Positions 107 through 51,211 of a DNA stretch of 57,994 nt are shown here, piece by piece. Source of the DNA: an uncultured Gammaproteobacteria bacterium (GTDB taxonomy: Bacteria; Patescibacteriota; Microgenomatia; CAZETR01); the NCBI GenBank assembly GCA_964514545.1, contig CAZETR010000032.1:1-57994 (forward strand). The letters are read 5' to 3'. A program made the translations under genes and the position numbers. Within the stretch, counting starts at the first letter, position 1; every line of letters begins with the position of its first letter. Under the pieces are notes generated by a model. It was not told where the DNA came from. It worked only from the letters and a program-made list of their open reading frames with translations, and did not search any database.

Positions 107-1129
107 ATGCAATATAAGATTACTGCTTTTGGGAGCGCGCGAATGGATGTGTTTGTCCAGCTGCCGGATGACGAGATAGATCTGGCATGTGGGATTGACC
201 GAAAGAGGTGCGTGATTGAGTTGGGATATGGGGAAAAGATTCCGTTGCGCGGGGTTGAGTACTGGGTGGGGGGAAATGCGGCAAATTTGGTAGTTGGAAT
301 GAAGAGATTGGATATTAACGGCCAGTTGCTCGCTGAATTGGGAACAGGGCCAATGGCGGATTTGGCCAGCGAACAGTTGGCGAATGAGGGAATAGGAATG
401 GAACGGGTGACGCAGACGACAGGAGTGAGCGGGGGGCTGGGAATAGTTATTAACTATCAGGCGGAGAGAACTATCCTTTCTTATTACGCGCCCGAGAGGC
501 CGCAATTTCCGGAAACTCTAGTTCCGACGGAGTGGGGGTATTTGACCAGCATGGGAGAGGGATTTGAGGATTATTACGCAAAGGTTCTCTCCTGGGTGAG
601 AACAAATAAAGTGAAACTGGGGTTTAATCCGGGAGGGAGACAGATTAAGAAAGGCGCCGAATGGTTGGGGCAATACTTGAAGGCAACGGAGATATTGTTT
701 GTCAACAGAGAAGAAGCCTCCGCTCTGCTGAGCGGAAATCCCAAATCCCAAATCCCAAATCCCAATTTGAATGCCGAGATGATTGTCGATGTAAAAAAAT
801 TATTGGGGGGGTTGGTGGGGATGGGGCCGAGGGTGGTCGTGATGACCGATGGACCAAACGGGGCATACGCTTGTAACGGACAGACCTGCGTACATATACC
901 GATTATTGATGCTCCGGTTGTGGAGAGAACGGGGGCAGGGGATGCGTTTAGCACGGGATTTATGGCGGCAATCATTTTGGGGAAAGACATAGAAACGGCA
1001 ATGAAGTGGGGGACGGTCAATAGCGCGGCGGTGATCGGAAAAGTGGGAGCGGAACAGGGATTACTTCGGACGGGAGAGATAGACGAGTGGATGGGGAAAG
1101 TGGTTGCGGTGATTCAGGTGTCCGGGTAA
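107..1129 (+). CDS. PfkB/ribokinase-family carbohydrate kinase
   Basis: GGNAANL N-terminal signature and VERTGAGDAFSTGF PfkB motif; heptamer-repeat insert NPKSQIPNPNL at ~737-770. Confidence 0.9.
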   Translation: MQYKITAFGSARMDVFVQLPDDEIDLACGIDRKRCVIELGYGEKIPLRGVEYWVGGNAANLVVGMKRLDINGQLLAELGTGPMADLASEQLANEGIGMERVTQTTGVSGGLGIVINYQAERTILSYYAPERPQFPETLVPTEWGYLTSMGEGFEDYYAKVLSWVRTNKVKLGFNPGGRQIKKGAEWLGQYLKATEILFVNREEASALLSGNPKSQIPNPNLNAEMIVDVKKLLGGLVGMGPRVVVMTDGPNGAYACNGQTCVHIPIIDAPVVERTGAGDAFSTGFMAAIILGKDIETAMKWGTVNSAAVIGKVGAEQGLLRTGEIDEWMGKVVAVIQVSG

Positions 1130-1237
1130 GTGAACGCGTGGACGATGCCTGGATCGGTTGGATGTAGGTAATTAGCAACCGTAAAAATTTCTTGACGAAT
1201 CTAGGGTGCTTTGGGCTGACGTTTTCCACCCATTGAA

Positions 1238-1807
1238 GTGGAATTGGGGCTTGATTTTTCTAATTATGGTTACCATAATTTGCTAAGTATGGCTGAAGAT
1301 GATGCAAGAGCCGGTGAGCGGGGTCCAGGTGTAATTGAGGCGGAGCGTGTGGACTATAGGGAGCTAGCTCGTAGCGCGAAGTCTTATTTCACCAGAGCGC
1401 TAGGTGAAGTACGGTTGTCAGCTGAGCTCGGGGACTGTTTACTTAGCGGCAAATTAGTGAGTGAAACGGACGAAAGACAGTATGTATTTACTGAATATGG
1501 AGTATTTGTTGTAAACGTGGGACTGCCGGGTGCGCTTCTTGAAGAACAAATGGAATCGTTTGTGAGATCAGTCAAGGACGGAAAGGCTAGGAATGTGACA
1601 GGGTGGAGTGCAATGAGCGTTGGAGACAGGGAATACTCTGTGGGGAAGATGGAGCTGATGGGAGATCATGATGTTGATCTTCTGGCTGGTGATTTGGCAA
1701 AAATGGAGAGAATGCTAAAGAAAGCAGAAGAGGAGAGGGAGTTGACTAGCGGTCGAGTAACGGAGATCGACGCTCGATTTAGAAGTGCAGCGAGTTCTCC
1801 GGCGTAA
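1238..1807 (+). CDS. Hypothetical protein (alternative ATG at 1289)
   Basis: 189-aa ORF filling an otherwise empty gap; no recognised motif. Confidence 0.6.
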   Translation: MELGLDFSNYGYHNLLSMAEDDARAGERGPGVIEAERVDYRELARSAKSYFTRALGEVRLSAELGDCLLSGKLVSETDERQYVFTEYGVFVVNVGLPGALLEEQMESFVRSVKDGKARNVTGWSAMSVGDREYSVGKMELMGDHDVDLLAGDLAKMERMLKKAEEERELTSGRVTEIDARFRSAASSPA

Positions 1808-1863
1808 CTGTAGCTGGGTGGAGTGGCTGAGGAAAATGGGAGGGGTGGAAGCGAGACAGATTT

Positions 1864-1893
1864 GAGATAAGCAAAGCTTGTTTCTGCGAGATA
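1864..1893. repeat. 30-bp hairpin repeat (family B) in a GAGATA tract
   Basis: gagataagcaaagcttgtttctgcgagata; near-identical to the two tandem copies at 24082-24141. Confidence 0.85.
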
Positions 1894-1952
1894 GAGATGG
1901 AGAAATTAATTTGGTGGTTTGGTGACGGATTTGTTGGTATAGTGAACGTGCG

Positions 1953-2939
1953 ATGCGGATTTTTGTGACTAGAAAGATTCCGTTTTGGGACGAGGTGGCA
2001 AGGCCGCTTTATGAGGCGGGATATGAAATTGTGGTGAGGGAGGAGAATAGCCCGATTGCCAGATCCGAGATAGAGATAGAGATAGAGAAAGGATATGACG
2101 GGATGCTTACTTTACTGACGGATAAAATAGACTCTGAATTGTTGGAACACGACAAAAACAAGCAGTTGAAAATTATTGCCAATTACGCAGTGGGGTTTGA
2201 CAACATTGATGTTGAGGTATGTCGAGCGCGGGGGGTAATGGTGACGAATACGCCTAGCGATAAGGTGAACGAGAGTGTGGCGGAGCACACCTGGACGCTG
2301 ATGCTGGCGCTCTCCCGAAGAGTGGTTGAGGCGCATGAGTTTATGCGGAATGCGGCATACAGGGGATGGGAACCGGATATATTTTTGGGTCAGGATCTGG
2401 TCGGAAAAACAGTGGGAATTGTGGGAATGGGGAGAATCGGGGAAATGGTGGCCAGAAGAGAGAAGGGGTTTGGAATGAAAGTGCTTTACTTTAACAGACG
2501 GAGAATTGAGATAGAGATAGAGAAAGAATTGGGAGTGGACTATAGGGCTAGTCTTGAAGACTTGCTAAGAGAGAGCGACTATGTTTCTTTGCATGTACCA
2601 CTCACTCCCGAGACTCGGCATCTGATTAACGGAAAGAACCTGGCGTTATTTAAGAAGGGCGCGTTTCTGGTAAATACCGCTCGTGGGCCGGTGGTGAATG
2701 AGACGGAGGTGGTGGAGGCGCTAAGAGCGGGAATGCTGGGGGGCTATGCGACTGACGTTTATGAAAATGAGCCTAATCCACATCCGGAGCTATTGGGGAT
2801 GGCAAACGTAATAATGACGCCCCATATTGCCTCGGCGACTGTCGCGGCGAGGAGAGACATGGGTGAGATAGCGGTTAAAAATTTAGTGGAAGGCTTGGGG
2901 GGTAAGCAGCCTTCGAATATGGTTGGCGATAAATCTTGA
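1953..2939 (+). CDS. D-isomer-specific 2-hydroxyacid dehydrogenase (glyoxylate reductase / D-glycerate dehydrogenase-like)
   Basis: IANYAVGFDNID, GIVGMGRIG Rossmann motif, VNTARG, TDVYENEP, TPHIAS. Confidence 0.92.
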   Translation: MRIFVTRKIPFWDEVARPLYEAGYEIVVREENSPIARSEIEIEIEKGYDGMLTLLTDKIDSELLEHDKNKQLKIIANYAVGFDNIDVEVCRARGVMVTNTPSDKVNESVAEHTWTLMLALSRRVVEAHEFMRNAAYRGWEPDIFLGQDLVGKTVGIVGMGRIGEMVARREKGFGMKVLYFNRRRIEIEIEKELGVDYRASLEDLLRESDYVSLHVPLTPETRHLINGKNLALFKKGAFLVNTARGPVVNETEVVEALRAGMLGGYATDVYENEPNPHPELLGMANVIMTPHIASATVAARRDMGEIAVKNLVEGLGGKQPSNMVGDKS

Positions 2940-3007
2940 ATAACTTCTCAAATCGCAAATCCCAAATCCCAAGTTCCAAACAAATTCTAAATTCAAAATA
3001 ATAACAA

Positions 3008-4090
3008 GTGGAGCAAGACCCGCGAAAAATTAAGTTTGAAAATACGTCGGAGTTGCCGCCGACGACGAAAAGGTTTTCGGCGACTCGTGAGGCTAAGCCT
3101 GATTCAGAGAGGGGCGGGGAGGCTGACCAAGGGGGAGGGAAGGGATTGAAGCGAAATAAAAAGGTAGAGAGCAATCCCAGGCTGGTGCTGGCGATTCTGG
3201 CGCTGACGGTGGGCGCGACCTTAGTTATTTGGTGGACCAGGAGAATTCCCGAGGCAATTCGTGAGTTATCTAGCCCAAGGATTGTCGAAATTATGGGCGA
3301 TAGCAAAGAGTCTAAATCGAAGATAGCAGAAGAGAGAAGGATTGACTGGGAAAAACTTAAGATGGAGGTGGGATCCCAATTGAAAGCAGCTAAAGGGGAC
3401 TATTCGGTGGATGTTTATGATTTGGCAAGCCGGAAGTCAATTGGAATTGGCGAAAACAGGCCGATGACGGCCGCCTCTCTAATTAAATTGCCGGTATTAA
3501 TTTCTCTGTATCAACAGGGAGAATTCGGAAAGATAAATCCGGATTCAAAATATGTTTTGGAGGAAGCAGATAAAAGACAAGGGTCGGGGAGTATGGCATA
3601 TGCCAAGGCCGGGTCAAGCTATACTTATCGCAAGATGGCGGAACTGATGGGACAGCAAAGTGATAATACGGCCTTTCACGTTGTGACGGGAAGACTAGGC
3701 GGGGAAGCAATTGAAAAAACAATTACACAGGCAGGCTTGCTAAATACCAGCTTTAAGGAAAATGAAACGACGGCGTACGACGTGGCGACACTATTGATTA
3801 AGCTATACAGGGGGGAACTGCTAAATAGAAAGAATTCGGATGAGATTTTGGGGTTTCTGACAAAGACGATTTACGAGGACAGAATCCCAACCGGGGTGCC
3901 GACTGGGGTGAGAGTGGCGCATAAGGTGGGGACCGAGGTTGGGGTGGTGTCGGATGGGGGGATTGTATATGCAAAAAATCCTTACGTGCTGGTAATTATG
4001 AGTAAGGAGGCGAGTTTGGCTGAGGCACAAAAATTGTTGCCGGAGGTAAGTCGAGTGGTCTGGAATTATTTGGGGGATATACCCAAATAA
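3008..4090 (+). CDS. Membrane-anchored class A beta-lactamase-like serine hydrolase
   Basis: SxxK (ASLIK), SDN, HKVG (KTG-like) motifs; N-terminal TM segment. Confidence 0.85.
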   Translation: MEQDPRKIKFENTSELPPTTKRFSATREAKPDSERGGEADQGGGKGLKRNKKVESNPRLVLAILALTVGATLVIWWTRRIPEAIRELSSPRIVEIMGDSKESKSKIAEERRIDWEKLKMEVGSQLKAAKGDYSVDVYDLASRKSIGIGENRPMTAASLIKLPVLISLYQQGEFGKINPDSKYVLEEADKRQGSGSMAYAKAGSSYTYRKMAELMGQQSDNTAFHVVTGRLGGEAIEKTITQAGLLNTSFKENETTAYDVATLLIKLYRGELLNRKNSDEILGFLTKTIYEDRIPTGVPTGVRVAHKVGTEVGVVSDGGIVYAKNPYVLVIMSKEASLAEAQKLLPEVSRVVWNYLGDIPK

Positions 4091-5614: not shown

Positions 5615-8119
5615 TTATCTGGGGAAGTTGGTTGGTGTGGATTTGGGTTCGAGGATTTGTTTGATTTGGTCCGGGGTGCAGGCGGCTTTGGGTTCGGTGC
5701 CGGGAAGGAAATATTCAGCGCGTTTGTTGGGACACTCGGGGCAGGAGCGGGTACCGGTGAGAGTGCAGATTTCAACCCGGACTAGGTTTTGTGGAGGGGA
5801 ATAGGGCTTGTCGGGAATGTCCCGGGTTAAGGCGTACATAGTTTTTTGCCAGATGGATGAGGCACCTGTTACTCCTGAGGCAACATAGCTCATGGACGAA
5901 CTATCGTTGTTTCCCACCCAGACCGCGACTAGGTAGTTCGGTGTAAAGCCGAGAGTCCAGTTGTCCTTGAGATTATTGGAAGTGCCGGTTTTAACAGCTA
6001 CGTGTTTGTTGGGAATTACCAGGGTGGAGTTGGTGCCGAAAGCGGGGGCGCGGGCGGAGTTATCGGAGAGAATATCGATAAGCTGATAGGCGACGGCGGG
6101 ATTGAGGACGTGTTTGGCGGGGCAGGAGGACGGGAGACTGAGGTTGGAAGTTTGAAGTTGAAGATTGAAGTTTGAGGATTGAAGATCGAAGGGACAAGTG
6201 TACTCTTCGAGTGTTTTGCCTTTGTAATCTGTTACTTTGAGAATGGGTTGAAGGTCGATGCGGGTGCCAAGATTGGCAATGGTGCCAAAGGCCGTGGCCA
6301 TGTCGGTCATTTTGACTTCTCCGCCACCCAGAGTGAGCGACAATCCGTATTGATTCGGGTCGACCCAGGTGGTGATGCCCATTTCCCTGCCTCTTTCGAT
6401 CATTCTTTGAACTCCGAGATTAGCCAGGGTGCGGACTGCCGGGATGTTATATGAGGAGGCGAGAGCTGTTCTAAGCGTGACCTTGCCGTGGAAGGAGCCG
6501 TCGTAGTTGCGGGGGGTATAGATAGGTTGGCCGGGGACTTTGAAACTGACAGGTGAATCGTCGATTATGGACGATGGCGTGTAGCCGTTTTCCAAGGCGA
6601 GCGAGTACATGACCGGCTTGATTGATGATCCGGGTTGGCGGAGGGCCGTTGTGACGTTGAAGTTGCCGTCGTGGGCAATATCGAAATAATCTTTGGAGCC
6701 GACCATGGCCAGGATCTCACCTGTCTGGGGATTGGTAACAAGGGCGGCCCCATTTGAAATTCTAAACCGGTCCAGGGTTTTGATTTCCTCGGAGAGAATT
6801 TGCTGTGAAAGTTTTTGAGTGTTGAGGTCAAGTGACGTGGTCACTTCCAGGCCACCCTGTTCAACAACGTCTTCCCCGTATTTCTCGGCCAACAAACTTC
6901 TGACGTACATGACAAAGTGGGGAGCTTGGATACCGTTTTTAAGGGGAGCGAAAACGAGTAGAGCGTTCTCGGCTTCAGTTAGCTGGGATTTGGTGATGAA
7001 ATTATTAAGATACATAAGACGGAGGACGTCGAGCTGGCGCTTTTTGGCGAGTTCCGGATGAGCACCAAACGGAGAGTAAGTGGTGGGAGAAGCGGGTAGA
7101 CCTGCCAAAAGGGCCGATTCGCTGAGAGTGAGGTCCTTGGCGGATTTGGCGAAGTAAAGTTGCGACGCCTCTTCAACTCCATAGGCTGAGCCACCGTAAT
7201 TGACCTCGTTTAGGTACATTTCCAGGATTTGGTCTTTGGTGTAATAGTTTTCAGTACGGATAGCCAAAACAAGCTCCTTTATTTTTCGGGAATATGTTTT
7301 TTCGGACGAGAGAAGGGCGTTTTTGACTAATTGCTGAGTAATAGTTGAACCACCTGTCCGGGCGTTGTTGGTGGTGTTTTTGTAGATAGCGCGCAGGATC
7401 CCGCGTAGGGAAATGCCGGGGTGGGTGTAGAAATCTTTGTCTTCAGCGGCAATTGTAGCCTGGCGGAGTTGGATGGGGATATTTTCGAATTTGGCAAGTG
7501 AACGGTTTTCATTTTTATAAACTTTGTAGAGAAGATTGTGATTCCGGTCGTAGATTTTGGTTGTCAGGTGGACCTGGCGGGAGGCCAGCTCCTGCGGTGA
7601 GGGGAGGCCGCGGAGGATAGCGATATAAAAATAGGTTGCGAATACAAAAGTAATTGATAGCAAGAGAACCGGCACGGGTCTGATCTTGGGGAGATTAATT
7701 TTAGGTTTTACTAAGATAGAGTGGAATTTTTTCGGTTTGGGTCTAGGGGGAGGGAGGATTAATTTAAATATTGCGGATGGGGCGGAGATAAGGATTGTTA
7801 ATAATTTGGAAGCACTGACTTTGAACTTCGAGAAAGGTCTGATGATGGTTAACAAAGTTTTTAATAAGGCAAACTTAAGTAAGAGAAATAGAAGACGGAG
7901 GAGAAAGTGAGCTGACTTGAGGACAAAAATTAAAGTCGCAGCGGATACAGAGATCGCAAACTGGATTAGATTAAGTGCAAAAAAAAGCGCGAAGTAAAGG
8001 GGTTTTCCTATGAGTTGAAGTAGACGAATGATGTCAGTAGGGGCGGATGCGCCGAACAGGGTCGGGTTCTTTTTAGTGGGTTTCATGTGATTTGGGCTAT
8101 CGAGCGCGGATTTTGACAC
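5615..8119 (-). CDS. Class A penicillin-binding protein (PBP1A family, transglycosylase + transpeptidase)
   Basis: EDKDFYTHPG, GGSTITQQLVKN, RKIKE; transpeptidase SSIK, SYN, KTG. Confidence 0.95.
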   Translation of the reverse strand: MSKSALDSPNHMKPTKKNPTLFGASAPTDIIRLLQLIGKPLYFALFFALNLIQFAISVSAATLIFVLKSAHFLLRLLFLLLKFALLKTLLTIIRPFSKFKVSASKLLTILISAPSAIFKLILPPPRPKPKKFHSILVKPKINLPKIRPVPVLLLSITFVFATYFYIAILRGLPSPQELASRQVHLTTKIYDRNHNLLYKVYKNENRSLAKFENIPIQLRQATIAAEDKDFYTHPGISLRGILRAIYKNTTNNARTGGSTITQQLVKNALLSSEKTYSRKIKELVLAIRTENYYTKDQILEMYLNEVNYGGSAYGVEEASQLYFAKSAKDLTLSESALLAGLPASPTTYSPFGAHPELAKKRQLDVLRLMYLNNFITKSQLTEAENALLVFAPLKNGIQAPHFVMYVRSLLAEKYGEDVVEQGGLEVTTSLDLNTQKLSQQILSEEIKTLDRFRISNGAALVTNPQTGEILAMVGSKDYFDIAHDGNFNVTTALRQPGSSIKPVMYSLALENGYTPSSIIDDSPVSFKVPGQPIYTPRNYDGSFHGKVTLRTALASSYNIPAVRTLANLGVQRMIERGREMGITTWVDPNQYGLSLTLGGGEVKMTDMATAFGTIANLGTRIDLQPILKVTDYKGKTLEEYTCPFDLQSSNFNLQLQTSNLSLPSSCPAKHVLNPAVAYQLIDILSDNSARAPAFGTNSTLVIPNKHVAVKTGTSNNLKDNWTLGFTPNYLVAVWVGNNDSSSMSYVASGVTGASSIWQKTMYALTRDIPDKPYSPPQNLVRVEICTLTGTRSCPECPNKRAEYFLPGTEPKAACTPDQIKQILEPKSTPTNFPR

Positions 8120-9964: not shown

Positions 9965-12403
9965 TTACGGTGATGGGGTGGGGGTGGGGGTGATGAAGTC
10001 GGCGGGACGGATTGAGACGGGCTCCGTAGGATAGGAGGAACAGTCGAGGCAAAGGAGCAGGCCAAATTTGTCAAAAACTACGGCGTGGTTTTGCATCTCG
10101 ATATTTTCCGGTGGTGTTTTGTCGTTTGCCTGGATGCCGGTGGTTTTGTCGACCGGGATGTCTCTTCTTAGATTTTCAATTTCTGTTGGCAGAGTTCCCT
10201 TTTTAAAATACTCGAAACGAAACTGGCCACGGTCGCAGGATGCCGGATTTGCGGGGTCCGGCGGGAGTAAGCCGGAGGTGTTGCAGATTGTTGCTCCCTC
10301 TATGCCTGCTGGCTGGGTGGGCCAGACAGGCTGGTGATTTTTGAGAGCAGCGAGTGTGATTCGATTCCAAATCGGAGAAGCGCCGGTAACTCCAGAAGCT
10401 ACGTTTCCCAGGGGAGAATTATCGTTGTTGCCAACCCAGACGGCTATTAATCTTTCCGGATTGTAGCCAATTGTCCAGTTATCCCGTTTGTCGTTGGTGG
10501 TACCGGTTTTGACAGATACTTCAGGATGTCCGCTGACGTTTAGGTAAGATGAAGGGCCGAATGTAGCCGAGCGGGCATTGTTGTCTAGGAGGATGTGGGA
10601 GATAAGAAATGCCGTTTCTGGAGAAATTATGCGGGGTTCGTTTGAGGATTGAGAACTGAGATTTGAAGTTGGAGCCTGAAGTTTGATTTTTGAAGTTTGA
10701 TTTTTTGACTTTTCGGTTGCGACAAGCGGTACCGGGTCGTATCTTTCTAAGATTTTTCCAGTGTAGTCTTCGATTTTAAGAATTGGGTGGAGGTCGACTT
10801 TGATTCCGGAGTTGGCAAAGACACCAAAGGCGACAGCCATGTCGACCATTTTTACCTCGCCCCCGCCGAGAGTAAGTGATAGTCCGTAGTTTTTTGGGTC
10901 AATGAAGGTTGTAATGCCGAAATCTCTGGCCTTGGCAACGAAATTCTCCAAATTATTAAGAGTGAGCACTTTGACTGCCGGGATATTGTAGCTATTACCC
11001 AGAGCGAAGCGGGCCTGGGATGGGCCATGAAACGTATTGTCGTAGTTGTCGGGGCAGTAAGGTTTTTGGCCGGAAACCAGAAAGCAGGTAGGAATGTCAG
11101 CCAAAAGGGATGCGGGCGTGATGAGATTCTTTTCAATTCCCAAAGCATAGTTTAAGGGTTTGATTGAAGATCCGGGCTGGCGGGAGCGCAGGGTTATATT
11201 GACCGCACCATCGGCCTCTTTATCGAAATAGTCTTTGGAGCCGACCATGGCCAGAATTTCACCCGTTGCCGGAATTGTTACCAGGGCAGCCCCGTTGCCG
11301 ACCTTGGATTTTTTTAGTTTGGCGGTTTCGGAAGCAACAATGAGTTGGGCCTGATCCTGGAGATCAATATCCAGGCTGGTTGTGACTCTGAGGCCGCCGG
11401 TTTCAACTACCTGTTCTCCGTATTTCTGGACCAGCAGGTCTTTGACAAAGAGGACGAAGTGGGGAGATCGGATACCAACCTGGGGCGGGGCAAAATCTAA
11501 TTTTTCCTCAATTGCGGTACGCGCCTGTTCGCGGGTAATGAGATGATTGTCAACCATGCGACTGAGAACTAATTGCTGACGTTCCTTTGCCAGTTCCGGA
11601 TGAGCCCCGAATGGCGAAAAACGTGTCGGTGCTGCCGGAAGACCTGCCAGAAGCGAGCTTTCAGGTAAGGAGAGCTGGGAGGATTTTTTACCGAAATAAG
11701 TTTGTGATGCCGATTCGATTCCGTAGGAGGTCCCGCCATAAGGAACTTGATTAAGGTACATTTCAAGGATTTGATCTTTGGTGTAAATAGATTCGACTGC
11801 AAAGGTTAGTACAAGTTCCCGCAGTTTGCGCCTGATCGTTCTTTCCGGAGTTAAAAGGGCAGTTTTGACTAATTGCTGTGTAATGGTTGAGCCTCCCTGA
11901 AGCGTAAGTTTGCAATTTTGAATTAGGGTTTTACAAAGACCATACCCGAGATTTTTGATAGAGGCCCTGGCAATGCCGGAAAGGGCAAATCCATTGTGCT
12001 TGTAAAAATCTTTATCTTCAATGGAAATGGTTGCCTGTTTAACGTAAGGAGGAAGGTCGGAGAGCTTGACGGGCGTGCGGTTTTGGTCAGCGAAGATATC
12101 GTAGAGGAGAATTCCGTTGCGGTCATAGATTTTGGTTGAAACTGGAAATGGATTACGGGTTAGGCGTCTGGGGGAGGGAAGATCTTTAAAGACATAGACA
12201 AGTAATAGTAACAGTAAGAGTAAGGGTAAGAGAATTGCGGGGAGACGAAATTTAGTGGCGAGACCAAACTTTTTCCGTTGGGCGTTTCCATTTGATGGCG
12301 GGTTTGATGGCGGGGCGGTTAATTGGGAAAAGCGGCCGGCGGAGTTTCGGTAGAGAAGTTTGGATTTGTTTTTGGGATTGGGAATTGGAGATGGCATTGA
12401 CAA
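9965..12403 (-). CDS. Second class A penicillin-binding protein (PBP1A family)
   Basis: EDKDFYKHNG, GGSTITQQLVK, RKLRE; SSIK, SYN, KTG. Confidence 0.95.
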   Translation of the reverse strand: MSMPSPIPNPKNKSKLLYRNSAGRFSQLTAPPSNPPSNGNAQRKKFGLATKFRLPAILLPLLLLLLLLVYVFKDLPSPRRLTRNPFPVSTKIYDRNGILLYDIFADQNRTPVKLSDLPPYVKQATISIEDKDFYKHNGFALSGIARASIKNLGYGLCKTLIQNCKLTLQGGSTITQQLVKTALLTPERTIRRKLRELVLTFAVESIYTKDQILEMYLNQVPYGGTSYGIESASQTYFGKKSSQLSLPESSLLAGLPAAPTRFSPFGAHPELAKERQQLVLSRMVDNHLITREQARTAIEEKLDFAPPQVGIRSPHFVLFVKDLLVQKYGEQVVETGGLRVTTSLDIDLQDQAQLIVASETAKLKKSKVGNGAALVTIPATGEILAMVGSKDYFDKEADGAVNITLRSRQPGSSIKPLNYALGIEKNLITPASLLADIPTCFLVSGQKPYCPDNYDNTFHGPSQARFALGNSYNIPAVKVLTLNNLENFVAKARDFGITTFIDPKNYGLSLTLGGGEVKMVDMAVAFGVFANSGIKVDLHPILKIEDYTGKILERYDPVPLVATEKSKNQTSKIKLQAPTSNLSSQSSNEPRIISPETAFLISHILLDNNARSATFGPSSYLNVSGHPEVSVKTGTTNDKRDNWTIGYNPERLIAVWVGNNDNSPLGNVASGVTGASPIWNRITLAALKNHQPVWPTQPAGIEGATICNTSGLLPPDPANPASCDRGQFRFEYFKKGTLPTEIENLRRDIPVDKTTGIQANDKTPPENIEMQNHAVVFDKFGLLLCLDCSSYPTEPVSIRPADFITPTPTPSP

Positions 12404-32091: not shown

Positions 32092-32099
32092 GATTGGGA

Positions 32100-34360: not shown

Positions 34361-35023
34361 CTTGTAGTATTGGGCTGCCGAATCCAGGGGCATGGCCAGA
34401 AGAGGGAGGTCACGGTTAAAAACGCGATCCAGTTCCGGCCTACTGGAGTTTGACCCGCAACCCATGACCCAGACAGGTGGGATGTTCCAACCAACATGGC
34501 GGATATTACGGTTTACGCGGCCCTTGGGAACTAGCTTGTTAAAGAGGACAGCGACGTCGAGGCTGATACGACGGAGACTGGCGTCCTGGTTGATGTTCCA
34601 GATTGTCCAGCCTGTATCTTCCATGTCTTCCAGAAGCAGGGCCTTGATGTGGGTCTCCGGATAGAAGGAGAGCGGGGTCACTTTGGATATTTCTTCTGAC
34701 CTGGCATTTTCTCCGGTAACAGACCTATATTCTATCGGGATGATTGACGGAAGCGTATCTCCATGGGCGGCTTGCCAACGACGCTCGAGTTGCGTGGCGA
34801 GGAAGCTGCCTCCCTTACGGTTATAAAAAATAAGGTCGTACAAGAAGGGGTTGATTTCGTGTGCGAGCCTATTAAGTTGGGCGATGACCGTAGCTTCGTC
34901 AACAACCAGGGCAACCTCCTGACTACCAAACTGAAGAACTTGAATAATTTCGGGAGGAGGATATGTGGGAACAGAATCGTGAAGCGGAACTAGATTTGCC
35001 TGGCGTTCGGTTCTCCAACCCAT
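34319..35023 (-). CDS. Phosphoribosyltransferase-fold protein (HPRT-like)
   Basis: LLLEDMEDTGWT PRPP-binding loop, RKGGSF, WVMGCG; ATG at 35023 preferred. Confidence 0.65.
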   Translation of the reverse strand: MGWRTERQANLVPLHDSVPTYPPPEIIQVLQFGSQEVALVVDEATVIAQLNRLAHEINPFLYDLIFYNRKGGSFLATQLERRWQAAHGDTLPSIIPIEYRSVTGENARSEEISKVTPLSFYPETHIKALLLEDMEDTGWTIWNINQDASLRRISLDVAVLFNKLVPKGRVNRNIRHVGWNIPPVWVMGCGSNSSRPELDRVFNRDLPLLAMPLDSAAQYYKSLYAQPQNFPPHP

Positions 35024-35150
35024 GTTTGTGGTTTGGGGATTCCCTTTACCATTGTTAATTTTTGTGCAAATAGTTTGCAAGGGGCAAAATGGGGATTGCG
35101 GGTGCGGTAATATTGCGGTAAAAATGCGGAGAATCCCAGCACTAGTCTTA

Positions 35151-35207
35151 CCCTGCGCCGGAGGCTTCCAGCCTCGCGCTCGCGAGGGGCGACGGTGCGG
35201 GACAAGG
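35151..35207 (+). repeat. Intergenic hairpin element with family A-like ends
   Basis: cctgcgccg...cggtgcggg + acaagg; inner gaggct/agcctc. Confidence 0.6.
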
Positions 35208-35213
35208 CGGGAT

Positions 35214-36290: not shown

Positions 36291-36362
36291 ACAAATCAAA
36301 AATTAAAAGTTAAAAGGCAAAAGTGAAAGTCAAAAATAAAAAGTTGGATGTAAGATGTAATC

Positions 36363-38114
36363 ATGCTTTTTAGGAGGTTTGCAGAATTTCTGGAAAAATT
36401 GGAGGGGATGAGTTCGAGGAATGAGATGACTGTGGTGTTGGCAGAATTATTAAAGGAATTGAGTGCAGAGGAAGCTGACAAAGCGGTCTATCTGGCATTG
36501 GGATATTTGGCACCGCCGTATGCGGGACTCGAGATTGGGCTGGCCGAGAAGATGATGGCAAGGGTTGTGGCGCGTGCATTCGGGGTTACGGAGATAGAAG
36601 CATGGAGGGAATATAAGAAGGCCGGAGATTGGGGAAGTGCTACGCTTCAAATCCCAAATCCCAAATCCCAAATCCCAAAGAAACTGACGATAGGCGATGT
36701 CTATGAGGAGTTGGTGCGGATTGCGAAGGAGGGTGGTGAGGGGAGCCAGGAGAGAAAGGTAGAGATGCTGGCGAACTTGCTAAAGGAGGTGGGGGACGGG
36801 AGAAGTGCTAAGTACTTGGCCAGGATACCGATTGGAAGGCTAAGATTGGGGTTTTCGGACGTGACAATTCTCGACGCATTGTCGGTCATGAAGTCGGGTG
36901 ATAAATCACTTCGGAAGGAGATAGAGAGGGCATTTAACGTGATGGTTGACATCGGAAGGATTGCAAAAGTATTTAAAAAGGATCCAAGAGAGATCGCGAA
37001 AATACAATCAGAGCCCGGGATACCTATACGTCCTGCCTTGGCGGAAAGAATTCCGACGGCCGAGAAAATTATTGAAAAACTGGGTGAATGTGTGGTTGAG
37101 CCAAAATACGACGGAGTTCGTGTGCAGGTGCATATTACCACCCAAGGAGAAGTATCAATTTTTAGCAGAAACTTGGAAAGTACGACCGCAATGTTTCCGG
37201 ATTTGGTGTTAGCCGCCAAGAAAGAGCTTCCGAGAGGAGTAGTTTTTGACGGGGAGGCAATTGCGTACGATCCAAAAACAAACAAATTTTTGCCTTTTCA
37301 GGAGACGTCGCAGAGAAAAAGAAAACACGATATTGAGGAGAAGGCTCGCGAGTTGCCTTTGCGGGTATTTTTGTTTGACGTACTCTACGCAAACGGCCAT
37401 AGCCATCTGAATTCTTCGTATCGGGAGCGAAGGGAGGTTTTGGAAAGGATGGTAAAAGATAAAGGAACTTTTATCAAGGCGAAGTATCTGGCTGTGAAAA
37501 ATGCCCAGGAGATAAGGGCCGAATTTAGGGAATCAATAAAAGCAGGTTTGGAGGGGTTGATGGTGAAAAAGCCGGACTCGGTATATCAGGCGGGGGGAAG
37601 AAACTTTAATTGGGTGAAGTTTAAAAAAAATACTGAGACAGAAAGCGGAAAATCCAGGCTAATTGATACCTTGGATTGTGTGGTGATGGGAATATATCGA
37701 GGACGGGGAAAGAGAGTAGGGTTTGGGGTGGGAGCTTTCCTGGTCGGAGTGCTAGGCGCAAATAAAAAATTAAATATCAAAGACCAAAAATCTACCAGAA
37801 TTTTTACTATTGCGAAGATTGGAACCGGGCTGACCGATGATAAATGGCGGGAAATGGAAAGGAGGGGCCGAGAGCTGTTGGTACAAGAGAAACCTCCAGA
37901 GTACGACGTCGACAAAAATTTAAGCCCCGATGTATGGATGAGGCCTAAACTAGTGGTTGAAATATTGGCGGATGAGATAACTCGAAGCCCGATTCATTCG
38001 GCCGGATTGGCCTTACGATTTCCCAGACTTATCAGATTTCGAGACGATAAAAATTATCTGGATGCGACGACGCTTACAGAAGTTGAGAAACTATTTAAAT
38101 TGCAGGGCAGGTAA
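36363..38114 (+). CDS. ATP-dependent DNA ligase (DBD + adenylation + OB)
   Basis: EPKYDGVRVQVH, FDGE, FDVLY, EGLMVK, WVKFK, LRFPR. Confidence 0.95.
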   Translation: MLFRRFAEFLEKLEGMSSRNEMTVVLAELLKELSAEEADKAVYLALGYLAPPYAGLEIGLAEKMMARVVARAFGVTEIEAWREYKKAGDWGSATLQIPNPKSQIPKKLTIGDVYEELVRIAKEGGEGSQERKVEMLANLLKEVGDGRSAKYLARIPIGRLRLGFSDVTILDALSVMKSGDKSLRKEIERAFNVMVDIGRIAKVFKKDPREIAKIQSEPGIPIRPALAERIPTAEKIIEKLGECVVEPKYDGVRVQVHITTQGEVSIFSRNLESTTAMFPDLVLAAKKELPRGVVFDGEAIAYDPKTNKFLPFQETSQRKRKHDIEEKARELPLRVFLFDVLYANGHSHLNSSYRERREVLERMVKDKGTFIKAKYLAVKNAQEIRAEFRESIKAGLEGLMVKKPDSVYQAGGRNFNWVKFKKNTETESGKSRLIDTLDCVVMGIYRGRGKRVGFGVGAFLVGVLGANKKLNIKDQKSTRIFTIAKIGTGLTDDKWREMERRGRELLVQEKPPEYDVDKNLSPDVWMRPKLVVEILADEITRSPIHSAGLALRFPRLIRFRDDKNYLDATTLTEVEKLFKLQGR

Positions 38115-40283: not shown

Positions 40284-40284
40284 C

Positions 40285-44288: not shown

Positions 44289-44346
44289 GCGAAGCGAGAA
44301 GCTTTTATGTGGAAATTGAATCAGCTGAGGAAATCAAATATTAAAG

Positions 44347-44733
44347 ATGAAAAATCAAAAATACAGATCAAAAATTAAAAACAACATTGGTTTGAGGTTC
44401 TTTGATAGTGTTTATCAAATTGTGAAGAGGATTCCGGCGGGAAACGTAGCGACATATGGGCAGATAGCGAAGGCGATTGGAACAAGGGATGCCAGGATAG
44501 TTGGGTTTGCGTTGCATGCCAATAGAGATTCTGATGTGCCGTGTCACCGGGTGGTGAACAAGGAGGGGGGGCTAGCGGAGAACTTTGGCGGCCCGTTCGA
44601 CCCTACTTCGCAAATGCTTCGCAGGACAAGTGGGTGGAGAGAACAGAGGAGGAGGCTGTTGGCGGAGGGGGTGCCGTTTAAAAACGAAAAGATCGTGGAT
44701 ACAGAAAAGTGTAATTTCGATGTCAAAGTTTGA
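44347..44733 (+). CDS. MGMT-family O6-alkylguanine alkyltransferase (single domain)
   Basis: VATYGQIA, ARIVG, PCHRVV. Confidence 0.9.
   Translation: MKNQKYRSKIKNNIGLRFFDSVYQIVKRIPAGNVATYGQIAKAIGTRDARIVGFALHANRDSDVPCHRVVNKEGGLAENFGGPFDPTSQMLRRTSGWREQRRRLLAEGVPFKNEKIVDTEKCNFDVKV
44601..44630 (+). repeat. 30-bp family A element, in frame in the MGMT gene
   Basis: ccctacttcgcaaatgcttcgcaggacaag aligns ungapped with the 22780 copy. Confidence 0.7.
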
Positions 44734-46664: not shown

Positions 46665-48967
46665 ATAGCGTAAAGAAACAGTTTCCAATTGTAGGAATGC
46701 ACTGTGCGGCCTGCGCGATAAACATTCAAAGAACGCTTCGAAAGACTGTCGGGGTGGTGGTGGCTGATGTGAATTACGCCAGCGGAAGTGCTAGCGTGGA
46801 ATATGATCCCAGCGAGTGTAATGAGAAGAATCTGGAAGTGGCGGTTGCCAGCGTAGGTTCAGAGTATAAAGCTGTTCTGGGCGATGAAGGGGGCGGTGGA
46901 GCGAGTCCTTCGGGTTTAAGTGAAAGCGATCAAGTAGAAGAGCTGAAAAGAAAAGAACTCGACGATCTGCGGAAAAAGGTTGTTGTAAGTTGCGTGTTTT
47001 CGGTACTAATATTCATGGGGTCGATCCGAGACTTTGTTGCTTTTGTCCCATCCTTTTTGGCTTCCGGCCGGGTGCAGTTTTGGCTGTCTCTGCCGGTACA
47101 ATTTTGGGCCGGTGGAGTGTTTTTGAGAGCCTTGGTAAATAGTTTCAAAAACAGAATGGCCGGGATGGATACGCTAATTGGCTTGGGAACGATAGCGGCG
47201 TTTATTTTTTCTACGATCCAGGTTTTTGCTCCGGCGATGTTTGGGGGAGAGGGAATTTATTACGACACTGCGGCGGTAATTATTACCTTGATTTTACTGG
47301 GGAGGTTTCTGGAGATGAGGGCGAAGTCAAGAACGGGAGAGGCGATAAAGAAGTTATTGGGGCTTTCGGCTAGGACAGCGAGAGTGATACGGGGCAAAGA
47401 TGAGATAGAGATAGAAATTGAGAAGGTGATGGCGGGAGACTTGATTCGAGTGAGGCCGGGTGAGAAAGTGCCGGTTGACGGGAAGGTAATTGAGGGAGAA
47501 TCGGCTGTCGATGAAGCGATGATTTCCGGGGAGTCGATACCGGTTGAAAAAGGAGAAGGGGACATGGTCATCGGGGCGACGATTAATAAAAGCGGAAGCT
47601 TTGTTATGCAGGCGACCAAGGTAGGAAAAGATACGGTTTTGTCACAGATAGTAAAAATGGTCGAGCAGGCGCAGAATAGCCGGGCTCCGATTGCGCGGTT
47701 GGCGGACGAGATATCCGGATATTTTGTCCCGGTGGTAATGATGGCGGCGATTGGCACTTTTGTCGCCTGGTATTTGGCAGGGGCTGGGATTTCGTTTTCT
47801 TTACTTACAATGGTTGCGGTTTTGATTATTGCTTGTCCGTGCGCACTGGGACTCGCAACTCCGACCGCGATTATGGTGGGAGTGGGCAAAGGGGCTCAAA
47901 AAGGAATTTTGATAAAAGACGCGCAGGCCCTGGAGATTGCGCATAAGACAAGAACAGTAGTCTTTGACAAGACGGGGACACTGACCCGCGGTGAGCCAAA
48001 AGTAACTGACTTTGCGCTGATGCAGGCTCTGGAAAAGGTGGGGTTAAGTGTGAAGTGGCCTGTGGGCAGGATAGGGTCGATTGAGGGGTTTGTAAAACAG
48101 GCGGTCGCAAACCTGGAGAAAGGGTCGGAGCACCCTTTGTCTCGGGCGATAGTGGAGTTTTGTAGTAGTGACAGTAAGAGTAAGAGGGGTGAATTTCCGG
48201 TTAAAGAGTTTGTGGCGATTGAAGGATTTGGGGTTAGAGGAAGGGTGGGGGGGCTGAAAGTTGTAGTAGGGAACAGGAGGCTAATGGAGAGGGAGAAAGT
48301 GATGCGGTGTGCGGAGTTGGACAAAAAGGCTGACGCATGGTCGGGCGAGGGAAAGACATTGGCGTACGTGGGGATTGACGGAAAGAATGTGGCCTTGTTT
48401 GCCATTGCCGATACTCTAAAAGAAGAGGCTGGCGAGACTGTTGCAACACTAAAGAGGATGGGAGTTGATGTGTGGATGATTACCGGAGATAATACGCCCA
48501 CGGCCCAGGCGATTGGGCGAATGGCGGGGATCGATATGGTGATGGCGCAAGTGCTGCCGGAAGACAAGGTGAATAAGGTAAAGGAGCTGAAAGAGAAGTC
48601 AGGCGGGGTGGTGATGTTTGTCGGTGACGGGGTAAACGACGCTCCGGCGCTGGCGGCAGCTGATGTGGGGGTGGCCATGGGGAGCGGCACGGATGTGGCA
48701 ATTGAGTCGGCGGGGGTGACGCTACTCAGCCGTGACCTGCGGTCGGTTGTGTCGGCTCTCAAGTTATCGCGGGCGACGATGGGGGTGATAAAACAAAATT
48801 TGTTTTGGGCGTTTGCCTATAACGTGATTTTGATTCCGGTTGCAGCGGGAGCGCTCTTTCCTTTCTTTAGAGTTTTATTAAATCCAATACTGGCAAGTCT
48901 GGCGATGGCGGCAAGCTCGATTAGCGTGGTCGGGAACTCCCTGCGATTAAGGGAAGGCAAAATTTAA
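46661..48967 (+). CDS. copA: Cu(I)-translocating P1B-type ATPase
   Basis: [41 protein letters not shown]. Confidence 0.96.
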
Positions 48968-49105
48968 AATTCAAAGGGCCAAATTACAATTCAAAATTCA
49001 AAAATTATCGCCATTTGCCACCAATTTAAACCCCATATGGTGACAAGTGTCGTAAGGCGACTTGTAGTTGCTAAATGGAATGCTTTTGGTATAACCTGGG
49101 TTACA

Positions 49106-49426
49106 ATGTCGATAAAAATTACAGACCAAAATTTTGACACGGAGGTTATAAAGGAGACCTTACCGGTAATGGTTGATTTCTGGGCCGAGTGGTGCGGGCC
49201 GTGCAAAATGGCCGAGCCCGTGATTGAGGAACTGGCAAGTACGTACGTCGATAAGGTCAAAGTGGGGAAACTGAACGTGGACGAGAATACAGCTGTTGCG
49301 GCAAAGTATGGGGTGATGAGTATCCCGACGGTGATACTGTTTAAAGATGGTGCCGAGGTGGCCCGACAGGTGGGGTATGCGGGTAAGGCAGGGTACGAGC
49401 AATTGGTTGCGAAGGCGAGCGTGTAA
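49106..49426 (+). CDS. trxA: Thioredoxin
   Basis: DFWAEWCGPCK, MSIPT. Confidence 0.96.
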   Translation: MSIKITDQNFDTEVIKETLPVMVDFWAEWCGPCKMAEPVIEELASTYVDKVKVGKLNVDENTAVAAKYGVMSIPTVILFKDGAEVARQVGYAGKAGYEQLVAKASV

Positions 49427-49431
49427 TTAGC

Positions 49432-50015
49432 CTATCGCTTGAAGAGCCTCTTCTTTTTAAGATCTACCACGTTGGAGCAGAGGTCGGTTATAACAAGCTG
49501 GTTGCCAATCGGTTTGACGTTCCAGGCAATCATGTTTATGCCTACAGTTCGAAGCCGATTGTTGAAGTTTTCCGAGGCAAATTCTAATATTCTCAAAATT
49601 TCTGAGTTGATACTGCGTTCGAGGCTTCACCAACTTGAAAAATATCTGCTAAAGTTTTGCCGGGGATAAGTTTCGATATTGTGAACGGCACGATTGCACT
49701 TCGGATATATGGGTCTTGACACCTACCGATTCCAAGAATTGGATTGACTGACCAGGCGAAATTGCACTCTTTGTGTAAGGGAAAACCGGCAACTTTGATT
49801 GATCGAAATTTCCGGGCTGCATCATTTGTTACCTTTGTATAATATGAGACTGTTTCGTAATTTACACTATCGTGCTTTGTGGGATTGCGCAGCCAGTAGA
49901 TTTTTACAGCGATTGCTTCTCCGGTTTTCGGATCTACTCCTCTAAGAACTAAAGACTCGTTGTGTCCGATTGATTCTTTTTCTAATGTGTATGCGGATAG
50001 GCTAACCTCTTTCAT
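49432..50015 (-). pseudogene. Frameshifted kinase-like/hypothetical gene
   Basis: ORF 49593-50015 (IG...AIAVKIY) continues in a shifted frame to WNVKPIGNQLVITDL, stop at 49432-49434. Confidence 0.4.
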
Positions 50016-50107
50016 AATTATGTGGTGTATTGTCTATTAGGTGCTATGTTTTTGCAAGTCGGGGTCGCGGGTTGTGGGTATGACTGGCGGCATGGTATGG
50101 TAGGTGG

Positions 50108-51211
50108 ATGGAGGGCGATATTTACGATGTGATGATAATTGGTTCGGGGCCGGCGGGGCTGACGGCGGGGATATATTGCGGTCGGGCAAATCTCAAGACG
50201 GTGGTGGTCGGTGGATCAATCTGGGGCGGACAGCTGATGCTGACGACGGATGTGGAGAATTTTCCGGGATTTCCCAAGGGAATACTCGGACCGCAACTGA
50301 TGGGGAATATGCGGGCACAAAGTGAGAAGTTCGGCGGAAGGGTTGTTGAAGAAGACGCAACCGGGGTTGACTTTTCCAAGCGGCCGTTTGAAGTAAGTGC
50401 GGGGGAAAAGAAGTACTTGGGCAAAGCTGTAATTGTGGCGACGGGCGCGGCTGCGAAATGGTTGGAGCTGCCCAATGAGCAAAAGTTAATCGGCAGAGGG
50501 GTCTCGAGTTGCGCCCCGTGCGACGCGCCGTTCTTTAGGGAAAAAGATGTGATTGTGGTGGGTGGAGGAGACGCGGCGATGGAAGAGGCGCTGACACTCG
50601 CGAGGTTTGCTAAAACCGTGACGATAGTCCACCGGAAAAGCGAGTTTAAGGCAAGCAAGATAATGCAGGAGAGGGTGATGGGGGAGCCAAAGATAAAGAT
50701 AATTTGGAATACGGAGGTAGCGGATATATTGGGGGAGAGCAAGGTGGGGGGAGTAACATTCAAATCCCAAACCCCCCGCCTTCGCCAGGGCTATGGCGGG
50801 CAGGCAAATTTGAAGTTCCAAATAAACCAAAATTTTCAAAATTCAAAAGTTGTTTCGCAAAACGAAAAAGAGATTATTTGGGAGATGGCGATAGACGGGG
50901 TGTTTGTGGCGATAGGGCACGTGCCGGCGACGGGTATTTTTAACGGGAAGATTGAGCTGGACGAGAAAGGGTATGTGGCGAAAGCCACAAATTCCTCATG
51001 GAAAGGTTCTGGCGAATTTTCCAGGGCAAGCAAATTCCAAACCTCAAAAAGGTACTCATCAATGAGTAGTGTTGAGGGGGTATTTGTGAGCGGGGACGTG
51101 CATGATTATTACTATCGGCAGGCAATAACGGCGGCGGGTTTCGGGTGTATGGCGGCGATGGACGCGGAGAGATGGCTGGCGGAGCAGGAGATATCTGAGG
51201 GCACAGTCTAA
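50108..51211 (+). CDS. trxB: Thioredoxin reductase
   Basis: IGSGPAG, CAPCD, GGGDAAMEEA, VFVAIGH, RQAITAAG. Confidence 0.96.
   Translation: MEGDIYDVMIIGSGPAGLTAGIYCGRANLKTVVVGGSIWGGQLMLTTDVENFPGFPKGILGPQLMGNMRAQSEKFGGRVVEEDATGVDFSKRPFEVSAGEKKYLGKAVIVATGAAAKWLELPNEQKLIGRGVSSCAPCDAPFFREKDVIVVGGGDAAMEEALTLARFAKTVTIVHRKSEFKASKIMQERVMGEPKIKIIWNTEVADILGESKVGGVTFKSQTPRLRQGYGGQANLKFQINQNFQNSKVVSQNEKEIIWEMAIDGVFVAIGHVPATGIFNGKIELDEKGYVAKATNSSWKGSGEFSRASKFQTSKRYSSMSSVEGVFVSGDVHDYYYRQAITAAGFGCMAAMDAERWLAEQEISEGTV
50775..50804 (+). repeat. 30-bp family A element, in frame in trxB
   Basis: cccgccttcgccagggctatggcgggcagg within a heptamer tract; read as PRLRQGYGGQ. Confidence 0.85.

Follow-up and report, generated by a model that had tools for sequence, protein, structure and literature searches.

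Contig C32 (CAZETR010000032.1) of a metagenome-assembled genome (MAG) from the Microgenomatia is 57,994 nucleotides (nt) long, and this whole stretch, hereafter the window, carries short head-to-tail arrays of seven-nucleotide units such as AAATCCC and AAATCTC, many of them translated in frame within housekeeping enzymes. What sets the polarity of these heptamer arrays is the chromosome strand, overlaid by a coding filter, rather than transcription. We regard the arrays, with slightly better than even confidence, as heptanucleotide simple-sequence repeats (SSRs) that are born by slippage, are filtered by the genetic code and the protein context, and have a polarity relative to the chromosome strand. 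A preliminary description of the window had read them as tracts that follow the direction of transcription and stem from a transcription-oriented insertion or expansion process. Neither statement holds up: 49 of the 74 arrays inside coding sequences (CDS) cannot be reversed without creating a stop, 5 of 15 AAATCCC arrays in CDS are antisense, AAATCCC tracks the G/C-skew strand, and non-coding arrays ignore the neighbouring genes.

The C/A-rich sense strand noted in that description is itself real, and is found in 15 of 15 CDS arrays of the window, including those in two minus-strand penicillin-binding protein (PBP) genes, and in 60 of 74 genome-wide. Since seven is coprime to three, successive units pass through all three reading frames, so that each cyclic trinucleotide of the unit serves as a codon. 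Reversing each array in place created an in-frame stop in 49 of the 74 CDS arrays, so that most of the bias follows from the genetic code alone. Of the 25 arrays that could be reversed, the sense strand is A+C-rich in 19 and not in six, five of the latter being GGGATTT. The ratio of sense to antisense is 16:0 for AAATCTC, 7:0 for AAAATTC and 3:0 for AAAGTCA, and the complements of all three contain TGA. AAATCCC, by comparison, is stop-free both ways, its two readings being the hydrophilic KSQIPNP type and the hydrophobic GIWDLGF type of peptide, and in the CDS of this genome it occurs ten times in sense and five times in antisense (n=15). When relatives are pooled, it is in sense in 53 of 61 CDS cases (28 of 28 outside the order).

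The strand that matters is defined by base composition. The GC skew of the window is +0.29 and persists through the minus-strand PBP genes, so it is uncoupled from gene direction. A strongly skewed compartment of ~493 kb (|GC skew| 0.17-0.32, GC ~45-51%) makes up ~45% of the assembly and a weakly skewed one comprises ~608 kb (|skew| < 0.17, GC ~41-49%); heptamer arrays occur at 0.19 per kb in the former versus 0.036 in the latter, a fivefold difference. The MAG (1.10 Mb, 63 contigs, 96% complete) was considered as a possible chimera, a source of the two compartments that we rejected: only 23 of 508 proteins have a counterpart across compartments, all at most 46% identical, and the assembly thus looks like a single genome. 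The closest relatives of its RecF are from Patescibacteria MAGs (50-54% identity), one of them a Candidatus Blackburnbacteria genome, and relatives of the same order are likewise skewed (0.2-0.4). In Microgenomates, G/C strand disparity over the whole chromosome is already known (Kadnikov et al. 2020, PMC7143001), and there too the extreme skew is uncoupled from gene direction, although here only ~45% of the assembly is strongly skewed; that paper makes no mention of heptamer repeats (0 occurrences of 'heptam').

Against this background the C-rich AAATCCC reading lies on the G-rich strand at a ratio of 12:1 in this genome (|skew| >= 0.17), 15:0 in same-order relatives and 10:1 in other orders of the class (|skew| >= 0.15), or 37:2 when the three are pooled. 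A composition null places it there in 16% of cases, and this genome departs from the null in the opposite direction (p = 4e-9). The array does not simply follow the gene it sits in: on the C-rich strand, where the discriminating sample consists of 7-8 genes, AAATCCC is antisense in 6 and sense in 1-2, whereas in genes on the G-rich strand it is sense in 27-28 and antisense in 0-1. The pooled two-by-two table of gene strand against AAATCCC sense gives a Fisher p of 5e-6 with a strict skew cut-off and 8e-5 with a lenient one, with the reservation that orthologous arrays in relatives are not all independent events. Three of five antisense hosts were confirmed by Pfam (peptide deformylase, a PMT-family membrane glycosyltransferase and a PEGA-domain protein), and four of the five appear to be membrane or exported proteins that would tolerate a hydrophobic GIWDLGF stretch.

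Other units bear on polarity to different degrees. Arrays of AAATCAT have stops both ways; nearly all are in non-coding DNA, many of them between divergent genes. In skewed DNA they fall 10:0 on one skew strand, only a modest excess over the compositional expectation, given one G/C position per unit. They may be repeats of promoter regions or repeats that bind proteins (sites include C24:2110, C25:2318, C44:6303, C44:25358 and C62:6608, with six more). Relatives were of little use for judging AAATCAT polarity, the unit being rare in the order and the class member rich in it (G031) lacking skew. Four stop-constrained A-rich units occur in genes on the G-rich strand at 19:2, versus a baseline of 58% (p = 0.001), and intergenic arrays between co-directional genes are found in both senses. 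A crude table of A+C-rich orientation against skew sign showed no relation, because it mixes code-constrained with free units; the analysis has to be made unit by unit. The earlier remark that the tracts run against the local G skew is right for plus-strand genes only, as the arrays of the minus-strand PBP genes read G-rich on the plus strand.

Period-7 arrays were present at 18 of the 19 tract positions given in the preliminary description, as judged by Tandem Repeats Finder (TRF) and direct reading. At the trxB site (~50760) about two units are indeed there (TTCAAATCCCAAACCCC), but the tract is weaker than described, a palindromic element following and then degenerate heptamers. The arrays of the window and the open reading frames (ORFs) or spacers that hold them are the following.

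736-765 (+): AAATCCC x4.3, in frame (NPKSQIPNPN) in the pfkB-family sugar kinase ORF at 107-1129.
2949-2980 (+): CAAATCC x4.6, intergenic; it takes up the spacer that separates the genes for a 2-hydroxyacid dehydrogenase and a beta-lactamase-family protein.
6139-6191 (-): AATCTTC/AACTTCA x6.6 on the sense strand of the PBP1A-family gene at 5615-8119 (-).
10662-10705 (-): AAACTTC/AAAAATC array on the sense strand of the second PBP1A-family gene at 9965-12403 (-).
16008-16042 (+): AAATCTC x5 (SQISNLESQISN), in the C-terminal region of nrdJ at 13753-16254.
17258-17287 (+): AAAAGTC x4.3, in the first codons of the pduO-type ORF; maybe a 5' leader, the family match starting from residue 28.
17460-17512 (+): AAAGTCA/AAAATCA x7.7, within the PduO-type adenosyltransferase.
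22778-22826 (+): a family-A palindromic element, then CAAATGA CAAATCA units.
28078-28110 (+): AAATCCC x4.7, an exact insertion of 11 amino acids (aa) in loop 1 of a 5'-3' exonuclease.
28383-28471 (+): degenerate heptamers, a family-B element of ~36 nt (~28416-28451) and AAATCCC x2.9, in loop 2 of the exonuclease.
28666-28715 (+): AAAATTC/AAAACTC x7.3, a 14-aa insertion near the exonuclease C-terminus.
28995-29080 (+): AAGCCAC x3.1, then two overlapping family-A elements, at the N-terminus of a family 4 glycosyltransferase (GT4) ORF.
30540-30570 (+): (CAAGCCA CAAATCC) x2.2, inside an insertion of ~29 aa in MutM/Fpg.
33511-33541 (+): CAAGCCT/CAAATCA array (IKPQITSPKSQIK), in a variable RecF loop.
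34077-34093 (+): CAAATCT x2.4, in a second variable RecF loop.
36293-36345 (+): A-rich heptamers (AAAAGTT type), intergenic, between a Fic-domain gene and the gene for an ATP-dependent DNA ligase.
36648-36679 (+): AAATCCC x4.6 (QIPNPKSQIPK), in the ATP-dependent DNA ligase; position 36676, within the array, is the end of a Logan unitig.
44331-44381 (+): AAAAATC-type array, either in the leader of an MGMT-like gene or on its 5' edge.
48958-49003 (+): AAAATTC-type array over a P-type ATPase stop and the spacer before a thioredoxin gene.
50755-50830 (+): about two AAATCCC units, a family-A element (~50770-50804) and degenerate heptamers, in frame in trxB.

That such tracts add in-frame, low-complexity loops to enzymes, as the preliminary description had it, is borne out by comparison with known proteins. 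The exonuclease array at 28078-28110 corresponds to an exact gap of 11 residues (SSKSQIPNPKS) relative to M. smegmatis Pol I, and MutM has ~29 extra residues around its array relative to T. thermophilus MutM. Compared with 24 same-order orthologues, the exonuclease has 11, 13-23 and 14 additional residues at three loops, and other lineages have different inserts in these loops. The RecF arrays lie in variable loops; an AlphaFold2 model of RecF places both between strands, which is weak evidence given its mediocre quality (five-sequence alignment, pLDDT 67.6). The trxB product is ~50 aa longer than the Pfam profile span. No frameshifts and no split genes were seen at the window arrays, the intergenic ones lying between complete, unrelated genes, as the earlier account required. 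Its expectation that tract lengths in genes be multiples of three is not informative in either direction, because array edges are fuzzy: lengths modulo three are uniform in CDS and non-CDS alike.

Seven of the exonuclease orthologues (L076, L077, L078, L082, L084, L088 and L098) have SPNLGEG, PLNLRGG or PPKLGG inserted, in loops shared with the inserts described here. By hypothetical back-translation from the protein, PLNLRGG could correspond to a perfect DNA palindrome, TCCCCTCTTAA|TTAAGAGGGGA, and this suggests that the loop inserts of the relatives are in-frame palindromic elements across the order.

Genome-wide, seven is the commonest tandem period, accounting for 219 of 759 TRF rows, followed by nine (121 rows) and six (83 rows); a third-order Markov simulation of the same genome gave 21 period-7 rows. 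For quantitative work we used a robust set of 115 head-to-tail period-7 TRF arrays of at least 2.8 copies and a longest-ORF gene model made for this analysis, by which ~10.5% of the genome is non-coding. In this set 74 arrays lie wholly inside CDS (64%), 16 at ORF edges and 25 between genes, an intergenic enrichment of about twofold (p = 4e-4). Nine of the arrays counted as CDS fall within the first 5% of their ORF and may be leaders (such as the one at 17258 in pduO), and the true intergenic excess is above the twofold figure. The unit type is CAAANNN (AAATCCC, AAATCTC, AAAATTC, AAGCCAC, AAAGTCA and AAATCAT), and AAATCCC alone forms 18 arrays on nine contigs. In contig C53 (positions 927-3623), five successive small ORFs of 153-187 aa each start with a different heptamer array; such arrays probably make up the leaders or spacers within a tandem gene family.

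The majority of arrays have 3.4-4.6 units. The length distribution has a sharp mode at 32 nt (four units plus a CAAA core, or 4.6 units) for every unit type, including those without G runs, and the same mode appears in a skew-free family of the class (G031; L028-L036). No perfect period-7 run exceeds 34 nt anywhere in the genome. We rejected the idea that longer arrays are hidden at assembly breaks, as no contig ends in a period-7 tract, and a search for close strain variants returned only singletons among the 90% protein clusters. A Logan contig of run ERR3478687 (L008) is 100% identical to window positions 29137-36676 (7.5 kb) and ends inside the AAATCCC array of the ligase gene; its end was examined as a length polymorphism and dismissed as a unitig break at k = 31. 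Proteins with arrays of at least four units are missing from the Logan-derived protein set, and this effect of k-mer assembly could hide array-bearing genes from surveys.

The arrays extend well beyond this genome. AAATCCC x3 was found in 14 of the 27 genomes of the order and in 39 of the 401 of the class, and heptamer arrays in general are found order- and class-wide with lineage-specific units, for example AAATCAT/AAATCTT in G031, a skew-free class member that is also heptamer-rich. Some arrays are orthologous. A dnaN array (RKQIPNPKSQIPN) occupies the same site in four relatives from two genera and is missing from dnaN of the present genome, and a glycosyltransferase array is shared in place with G001 at 52% amino-acid identity. 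Between G015 and G014 the dnaN array is identical at 30 of 30 nt, whereas third positions outside it are 50% identical (p = 0.002). An orthologous array between the genera of G018 and G011 matches at 31 of 31 nt (p = 0.002), and a further one between genera at 27 of 30 nt versus 38% identity at third positions. In a second dnaN array of G015 and G014 the period of seven is kept and the whole unit has changed, CAGGAGT versus CGGTGTC, a case of concerted evolution of the kind typical of slippage turnover. Elsewhere in the class, L027:4829-4858 (G040) has TTGGTCA x4.3 inside an ORF, with a unit identical to that of the cyanobacterial repeat STRR2 (short tandemly repeated repetitive sequence 2), and CCCTAAA x3, searched as a reversed control (the complement of TTTAGGG, the plant-type telomere unit), gave 11 matches in G115 and five in G315; it is another lineage-specific heptamer family.

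Palindromic elements occur in or beside the arrays, in agreement with the preliminary description. We found 16 copies, 13 of family A (core CCTTCGCTGAAGCTTCGGCGGGCAGG) and three of family B (core GCAATGCTACGCATAGCGTTGC). Twelve of the 13 family-A copies share one polarity relative to the skew, and most are directly followed by CAAR cores spaced by seven. All three family-B copies lie beside AAATCCC/AAACCAC-type heptamers, those of C9 and the window being flanked on both sides and that of C11 on one, and in silico excision of the window copy restored a continuous array. The association rests on reading the flanks, a period-7 score over 28 nt being too strict for flanks of about two units. Copies lie in frame in the exonuclease, trxB and GT4 genes, and four genes of the genome encode PF01797 proteins (Y1 transposases of the IS200/RAYT type, for REP-associated tyrosine transposase, where REP is repetitive extragenic palindromic sequence). 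Dispersed imperfect palindromes of 20-40 nt, Y1 genes and in-frame copies together resemble REP/RAYT systems or Rickettsia palindromic elements (RPEs), with the pairing of palindromes and transposases putative, and the flanks of both families support the earlier suggestion that arrays may host or attract the palindromes.

Two loci deserve separate mention. At C33:65178-66353 a deformylase gene contains AAGCCAC x9.6 followed by inverted GGGATTT x4.4, with a Y1-transposase-like ORF just upstream. In the window, the sequence for GTVALQA, a conserved motif of the exonuclease, is overlapped by a 30-nt near-palindrome (GGAACTGTTGCCCTGCAGGCAACTAGTTCC, 28050-28079) that directly adjoins the AAATCCC array at 28078-28110. 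The right arm of this near-palindrome may have formed with the insertion, as a fold-back copy of the left.

The sequence of events that we favour begins with a DNA-level process, most likely replication slippage, by which arrays would arise and stay homogeneous. Inside genes three filters would then act: none of the seven sense codons may be a stop, the net insertion must preserve the reading frame, and the place must be tolerant, with hydrophilic KSQIPNP-type peptides accepted in surface loops of soluble enzymes and, in the other sense, hydrophobic GIWDLGF-type peptides mostly in membrane proteins (such filtering at the peptide level being presumptive). As A/C-rich readings are stop-free and most G/T-rich complements contain TGA, the stop filter explains most of the sense bias without transcription. 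Polarity relative to the skew strand would show in those arrays that the code allows in either orientation, with the AAATCCC reading on the G-rich strand, against the compositional bias. In model systems the stability of structure-forming repeats depends on their orientation relative to replication. The cause of the polarity may lie in a G-quadruplex-capable GGGATTT x4 strand that is stable in one replication orientation, or the array may be a selected polar element. The palindromic elements, probably moved by Y1 transposases, sit preferentially beside or inside arrays, family A in a fixed polarity.

Several points weigh against this slippage-and-filter account. Plain slippage predicts a monotonic length distribution, whereas the observed one peaks at 32 nt. 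Losing or gaining one unit by slippage would put dnaN, nrdJ or the ligase gene out of frame, which makes homogenisation by slippage inside essential genes hard to picture and favours selection; together with the 32-nt mode of units without G runs, this keeps readings as selected cis-elements or mobile blocks alive. The all-sense orientation of the 28 CDS arrays outside the order shows a sense preference beyond stop avoidance, which could be exerted at the peptide level or by way of transcription. On the side of polarity, the discriminating sample is small, and the stop-constrained units have no uniform skew polarity (AAATCTC 5:7). Two possible guides to the leading strand in the draft, moreover, point opposite ways: the 16S rRNA gene is on the G-rich strand of C61 (C61:11964-13569), whereas in C11 the operon of ribosomal protein L2 is on the strand that is weakly C-rich (C11:159879-160256).

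A first alternative, which we hold possible but tentative, is that selection maintains AAATCCC arrays, and perhaps others, as cis-elements that genes tolerate. They could be G-quadruplexes or i-motifs, sites bound by protein or RNA, or polar signals in replication or segregation. The idea is compatible with an origin by slippage. Nucleotide conservation of orthologous arrays above that of synonymous sites speaks for it, as does an orientation that runs against the mutational or compositional bias (p = 4e-9). Exactly four C3 runs are the commonest arrangement here and in relatives, and four G3 runs with short loops are present in GGGATTT x4 at 736, 28078 and 36648 as well as in relatives, within the AAATCCC family only. 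ViennaRNA with its G-quadruplex option predicts such a structure for the GGGAUUU x4 strand alone (-8.4 kcal/mol), and a preference for four units has also been reported for GGGNATC repeats (PMC4692102). However, the 4.6-unit mode also belongs to units without G runs (AAATCAT, AAAATTC), and only two CCC runs are present in the conserved block of G018 and G011, so that a G-quadruplex is no explanation for its conservation. A genome has, moreover, only ~18 AAATCCC arrays, at a threshold of three units half of the genomes in the order lack them altogether, and our dnaN lacks the array found in four relatives.

Next, and in our judgement unlikely, the arrays could belong to a mobile-element system, being inserted as pre-formed blocks of ~32 nt, growing from the CAAG/CAAA ends of small palindromes that Y1 transposases would move as single-stranded DNA, or serving as the preferred landing pads of those palindromes. 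The sharp 32-nt mode across all unit types, here and in another family, would fit, and so would the presence of one AAATCCC block at unrelated loci in many genera and the different inserts at equivalent exonuclease loops. Palindromes of families A and B sit beside or inside arrays, family A in one polarity (12/13), and of the four Y1-transposase genes one lies beside the deformylase gene with AAGCCAC x9.6 and inverted GGGATTT x4.4. Single-stranded DNA transposition of the IS200/IS605 type is known for its polarity relative to replication. Yet the array flanks have no conserved end or target duplication in common, the units flanking palindrome copies vary, so that arrays are no fixed part of the element, and the majority of arrays have no palindrome nearby. 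Arrays also persist at orthologous sites over deep divergence, and concerted unit change within an array is a signature of slippage.

A bolder combination of these two, which we consider rather improbable, would make AAATCCC-type arrays maintained replication-polar cis-elements, with the G-quadruplex strand on the C-rich chromosome strand, that act in addition as polar landing pads for Y1-driven palindromes writing protein loops, and not slippage debris. If true, ultra-small genomes would have, in a strand-polar system at the DNA level, a constant supply of new protein loops.

The transcriptional alternative, in which a transcription-coupled process lays down or expands heptamers with the C/A-rich strand always as the non-template strand, has become very unlikely. 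The C/A-rich sense strand of all 15 window CDS arrays and of 60 of 74 genome-wide would agree with it, as would the sense orientation of AAATCCC in 53 of 61 pooled CDS cases and in all 28 outside the order. But 49 of the 74 arrays are irreversible without a stop; in strongly skewed DNA, genes on the C-rich strand have AAATCCC six times in antisense versus once or twice in sense, and of the five antisense hosts three were confirmed as genes by Pfam. AAATCAT arrays, furthermore, lie between divergent genes and yet show a 10:0 chromosome polarity, and intergenic arrays between co-directional genes occur in both senses. Least credible of all are contingency loci that switch genes by frameshift through heptamer copy number (phase variation): a unit length that is not a multiple of three does shift the frame with each one-unit change, and several arrays lie near 5' ends, but the arrays are short (3-5 units), no window gene is split at one, the genes that carry them are of the single-copy housekeeping kind (dnaN, nrdJ, recF, mutM, def, the ligase gene and PBP genes) where surface or variable genes would be expected, and Rehm et al. 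were equally negative for GGGNATC repeats (PMC4692102).

Returning to the view of the arrays as code-filtered SSRs with strand polarity, their closest counterparts are the heptamers of other bacteria. The cyanobacterial STRR units are reportedly CCCCAAT, TTGGTCA and CAACAGT, as described by Mazel and colleagues in 1990. The likeness to STRRs suggested in the preliminary description stands, in that the arrays are real tandem heptamers: like STRRs and other long SSRs they are short 7-nt arrays of a few unit families at many loci, with lineage-specific units and non-coding enrichment, and CAAATCC differs from STRR1 (CCCCAAT) by one base. Tandem 7-nt units, an excess of period 7 and recurrence at unlinked loci and in relatives place them among the heptanucleotide long SSRs. 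They are not STRRs in the strict sense, as the units of this genome differ (a TTGGTCA array was found once, in the class relative G040) and the host is a 1.1-Mb genome of the Microgenomatia, within the candidate phyla radiation (CPR), instead of a large cyanobacterial one. About two thirds of the arrays here are, in addition, inside housekeeping genes and translated, because the genome is 90% coding; they are polar against an extreme G/C skew, and some are conserved at the nucleotide level across genera. Small dispersed repeats (SDRs) are said, by Elhai and colleagues in 2008, to be embedded in the heptamer arrays of Nostoc. As with those SDRs, RPEs and REP/RAYT systems, palindromes of 30-36 nt lie here beside or inside heptamer arrays and in frame in genes, and Y1 genes are present, but the sequence families differ, the elements are GC-rich, family A is skew-polar (12/13) and mobility is putative.

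Heptanucleotide long SSRs have been described in prokaryotes (Mrazek, Guo & Shah 2007, as cited in PMC4692102), and G-quadruplex-forming heptamers, GGGNATC and GGGGA(C/T)T, are known from Xanthomonas and Nostoc (Rehm et al. 2015, PMC4692102). Like ours, the GGGNATC repeats are heptamers with a G3 run, seldom have their G-rich strand on the coding side, are associated with genes of random functional classes and have conserved flanking loci. In contrast, GGGATTT fits neither published consensus, the strong non-coding bias of the GGGNATC repeats has at most a partial counterpart here, where arrays are enriched about twofold between genes and 64% lie inside ORFs (some perhaps in leaders), the four-unit mode here is common to units without G runs, and polarity here goes beyond the neighbouring ORF to the skew strand. 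TAACTGA direct repeats of Beggiatoaceae, Cyanobacteria and Bacteroidetes (MacGregor 2015, PMC4679880) come in 2-6 copies per set, many just upstream of starts, and several arrays of the window similarly fill spacers or leaders (2949, 36293, 44331 and 48958); TAACTGA, however, contains stops and is almost exclusively intergenic, whereas the dominant units here are stop-free in one sense and translated. Our literature search found no description of these heptamer arrays in Patescibacteria. What sets them apart from the known classes is the CPR host, the heavy in-frame load in housekeeping enzymes, the polarity against skew and the nucleotide-level conservation.

These arrays illustrate a general rule: when a tandem repeat whose unit is not a triplet lies within a gene, none of the three frames may contain a stop. 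That requirement alone yields a 'transcription-like' C/A-rich sense bias, a trap when polarity is taken as evidence of mechanism. In CPR genomes, which are ~90% coding, heptamers that are intergenic in cyanobacteria and Xanthomonas are forced into essential enzymes and become protein loops, which makes them a natural test bed for DNA-level repeats that create protein insertions. With a G-quadruplex-capable unit oriented against an extreme skew and arrays that outlast synonymous saturation, the function of bacterial heptamers is more testable in this lineage.

The window contains a further repeat besides the heptamers. A 30-nt unit with its own hairpin (GAGATAAGCAGAGCTTGTCTCTGCGAGATG) forms a tandem duplicate at 24082-24146 and has a third copy at 1853, and it is accompanied by arrays of the hexamer GAGATA; the window positions involved are 1853-1898, 2067, 2508, 24082-24146, 24136 and 47398.

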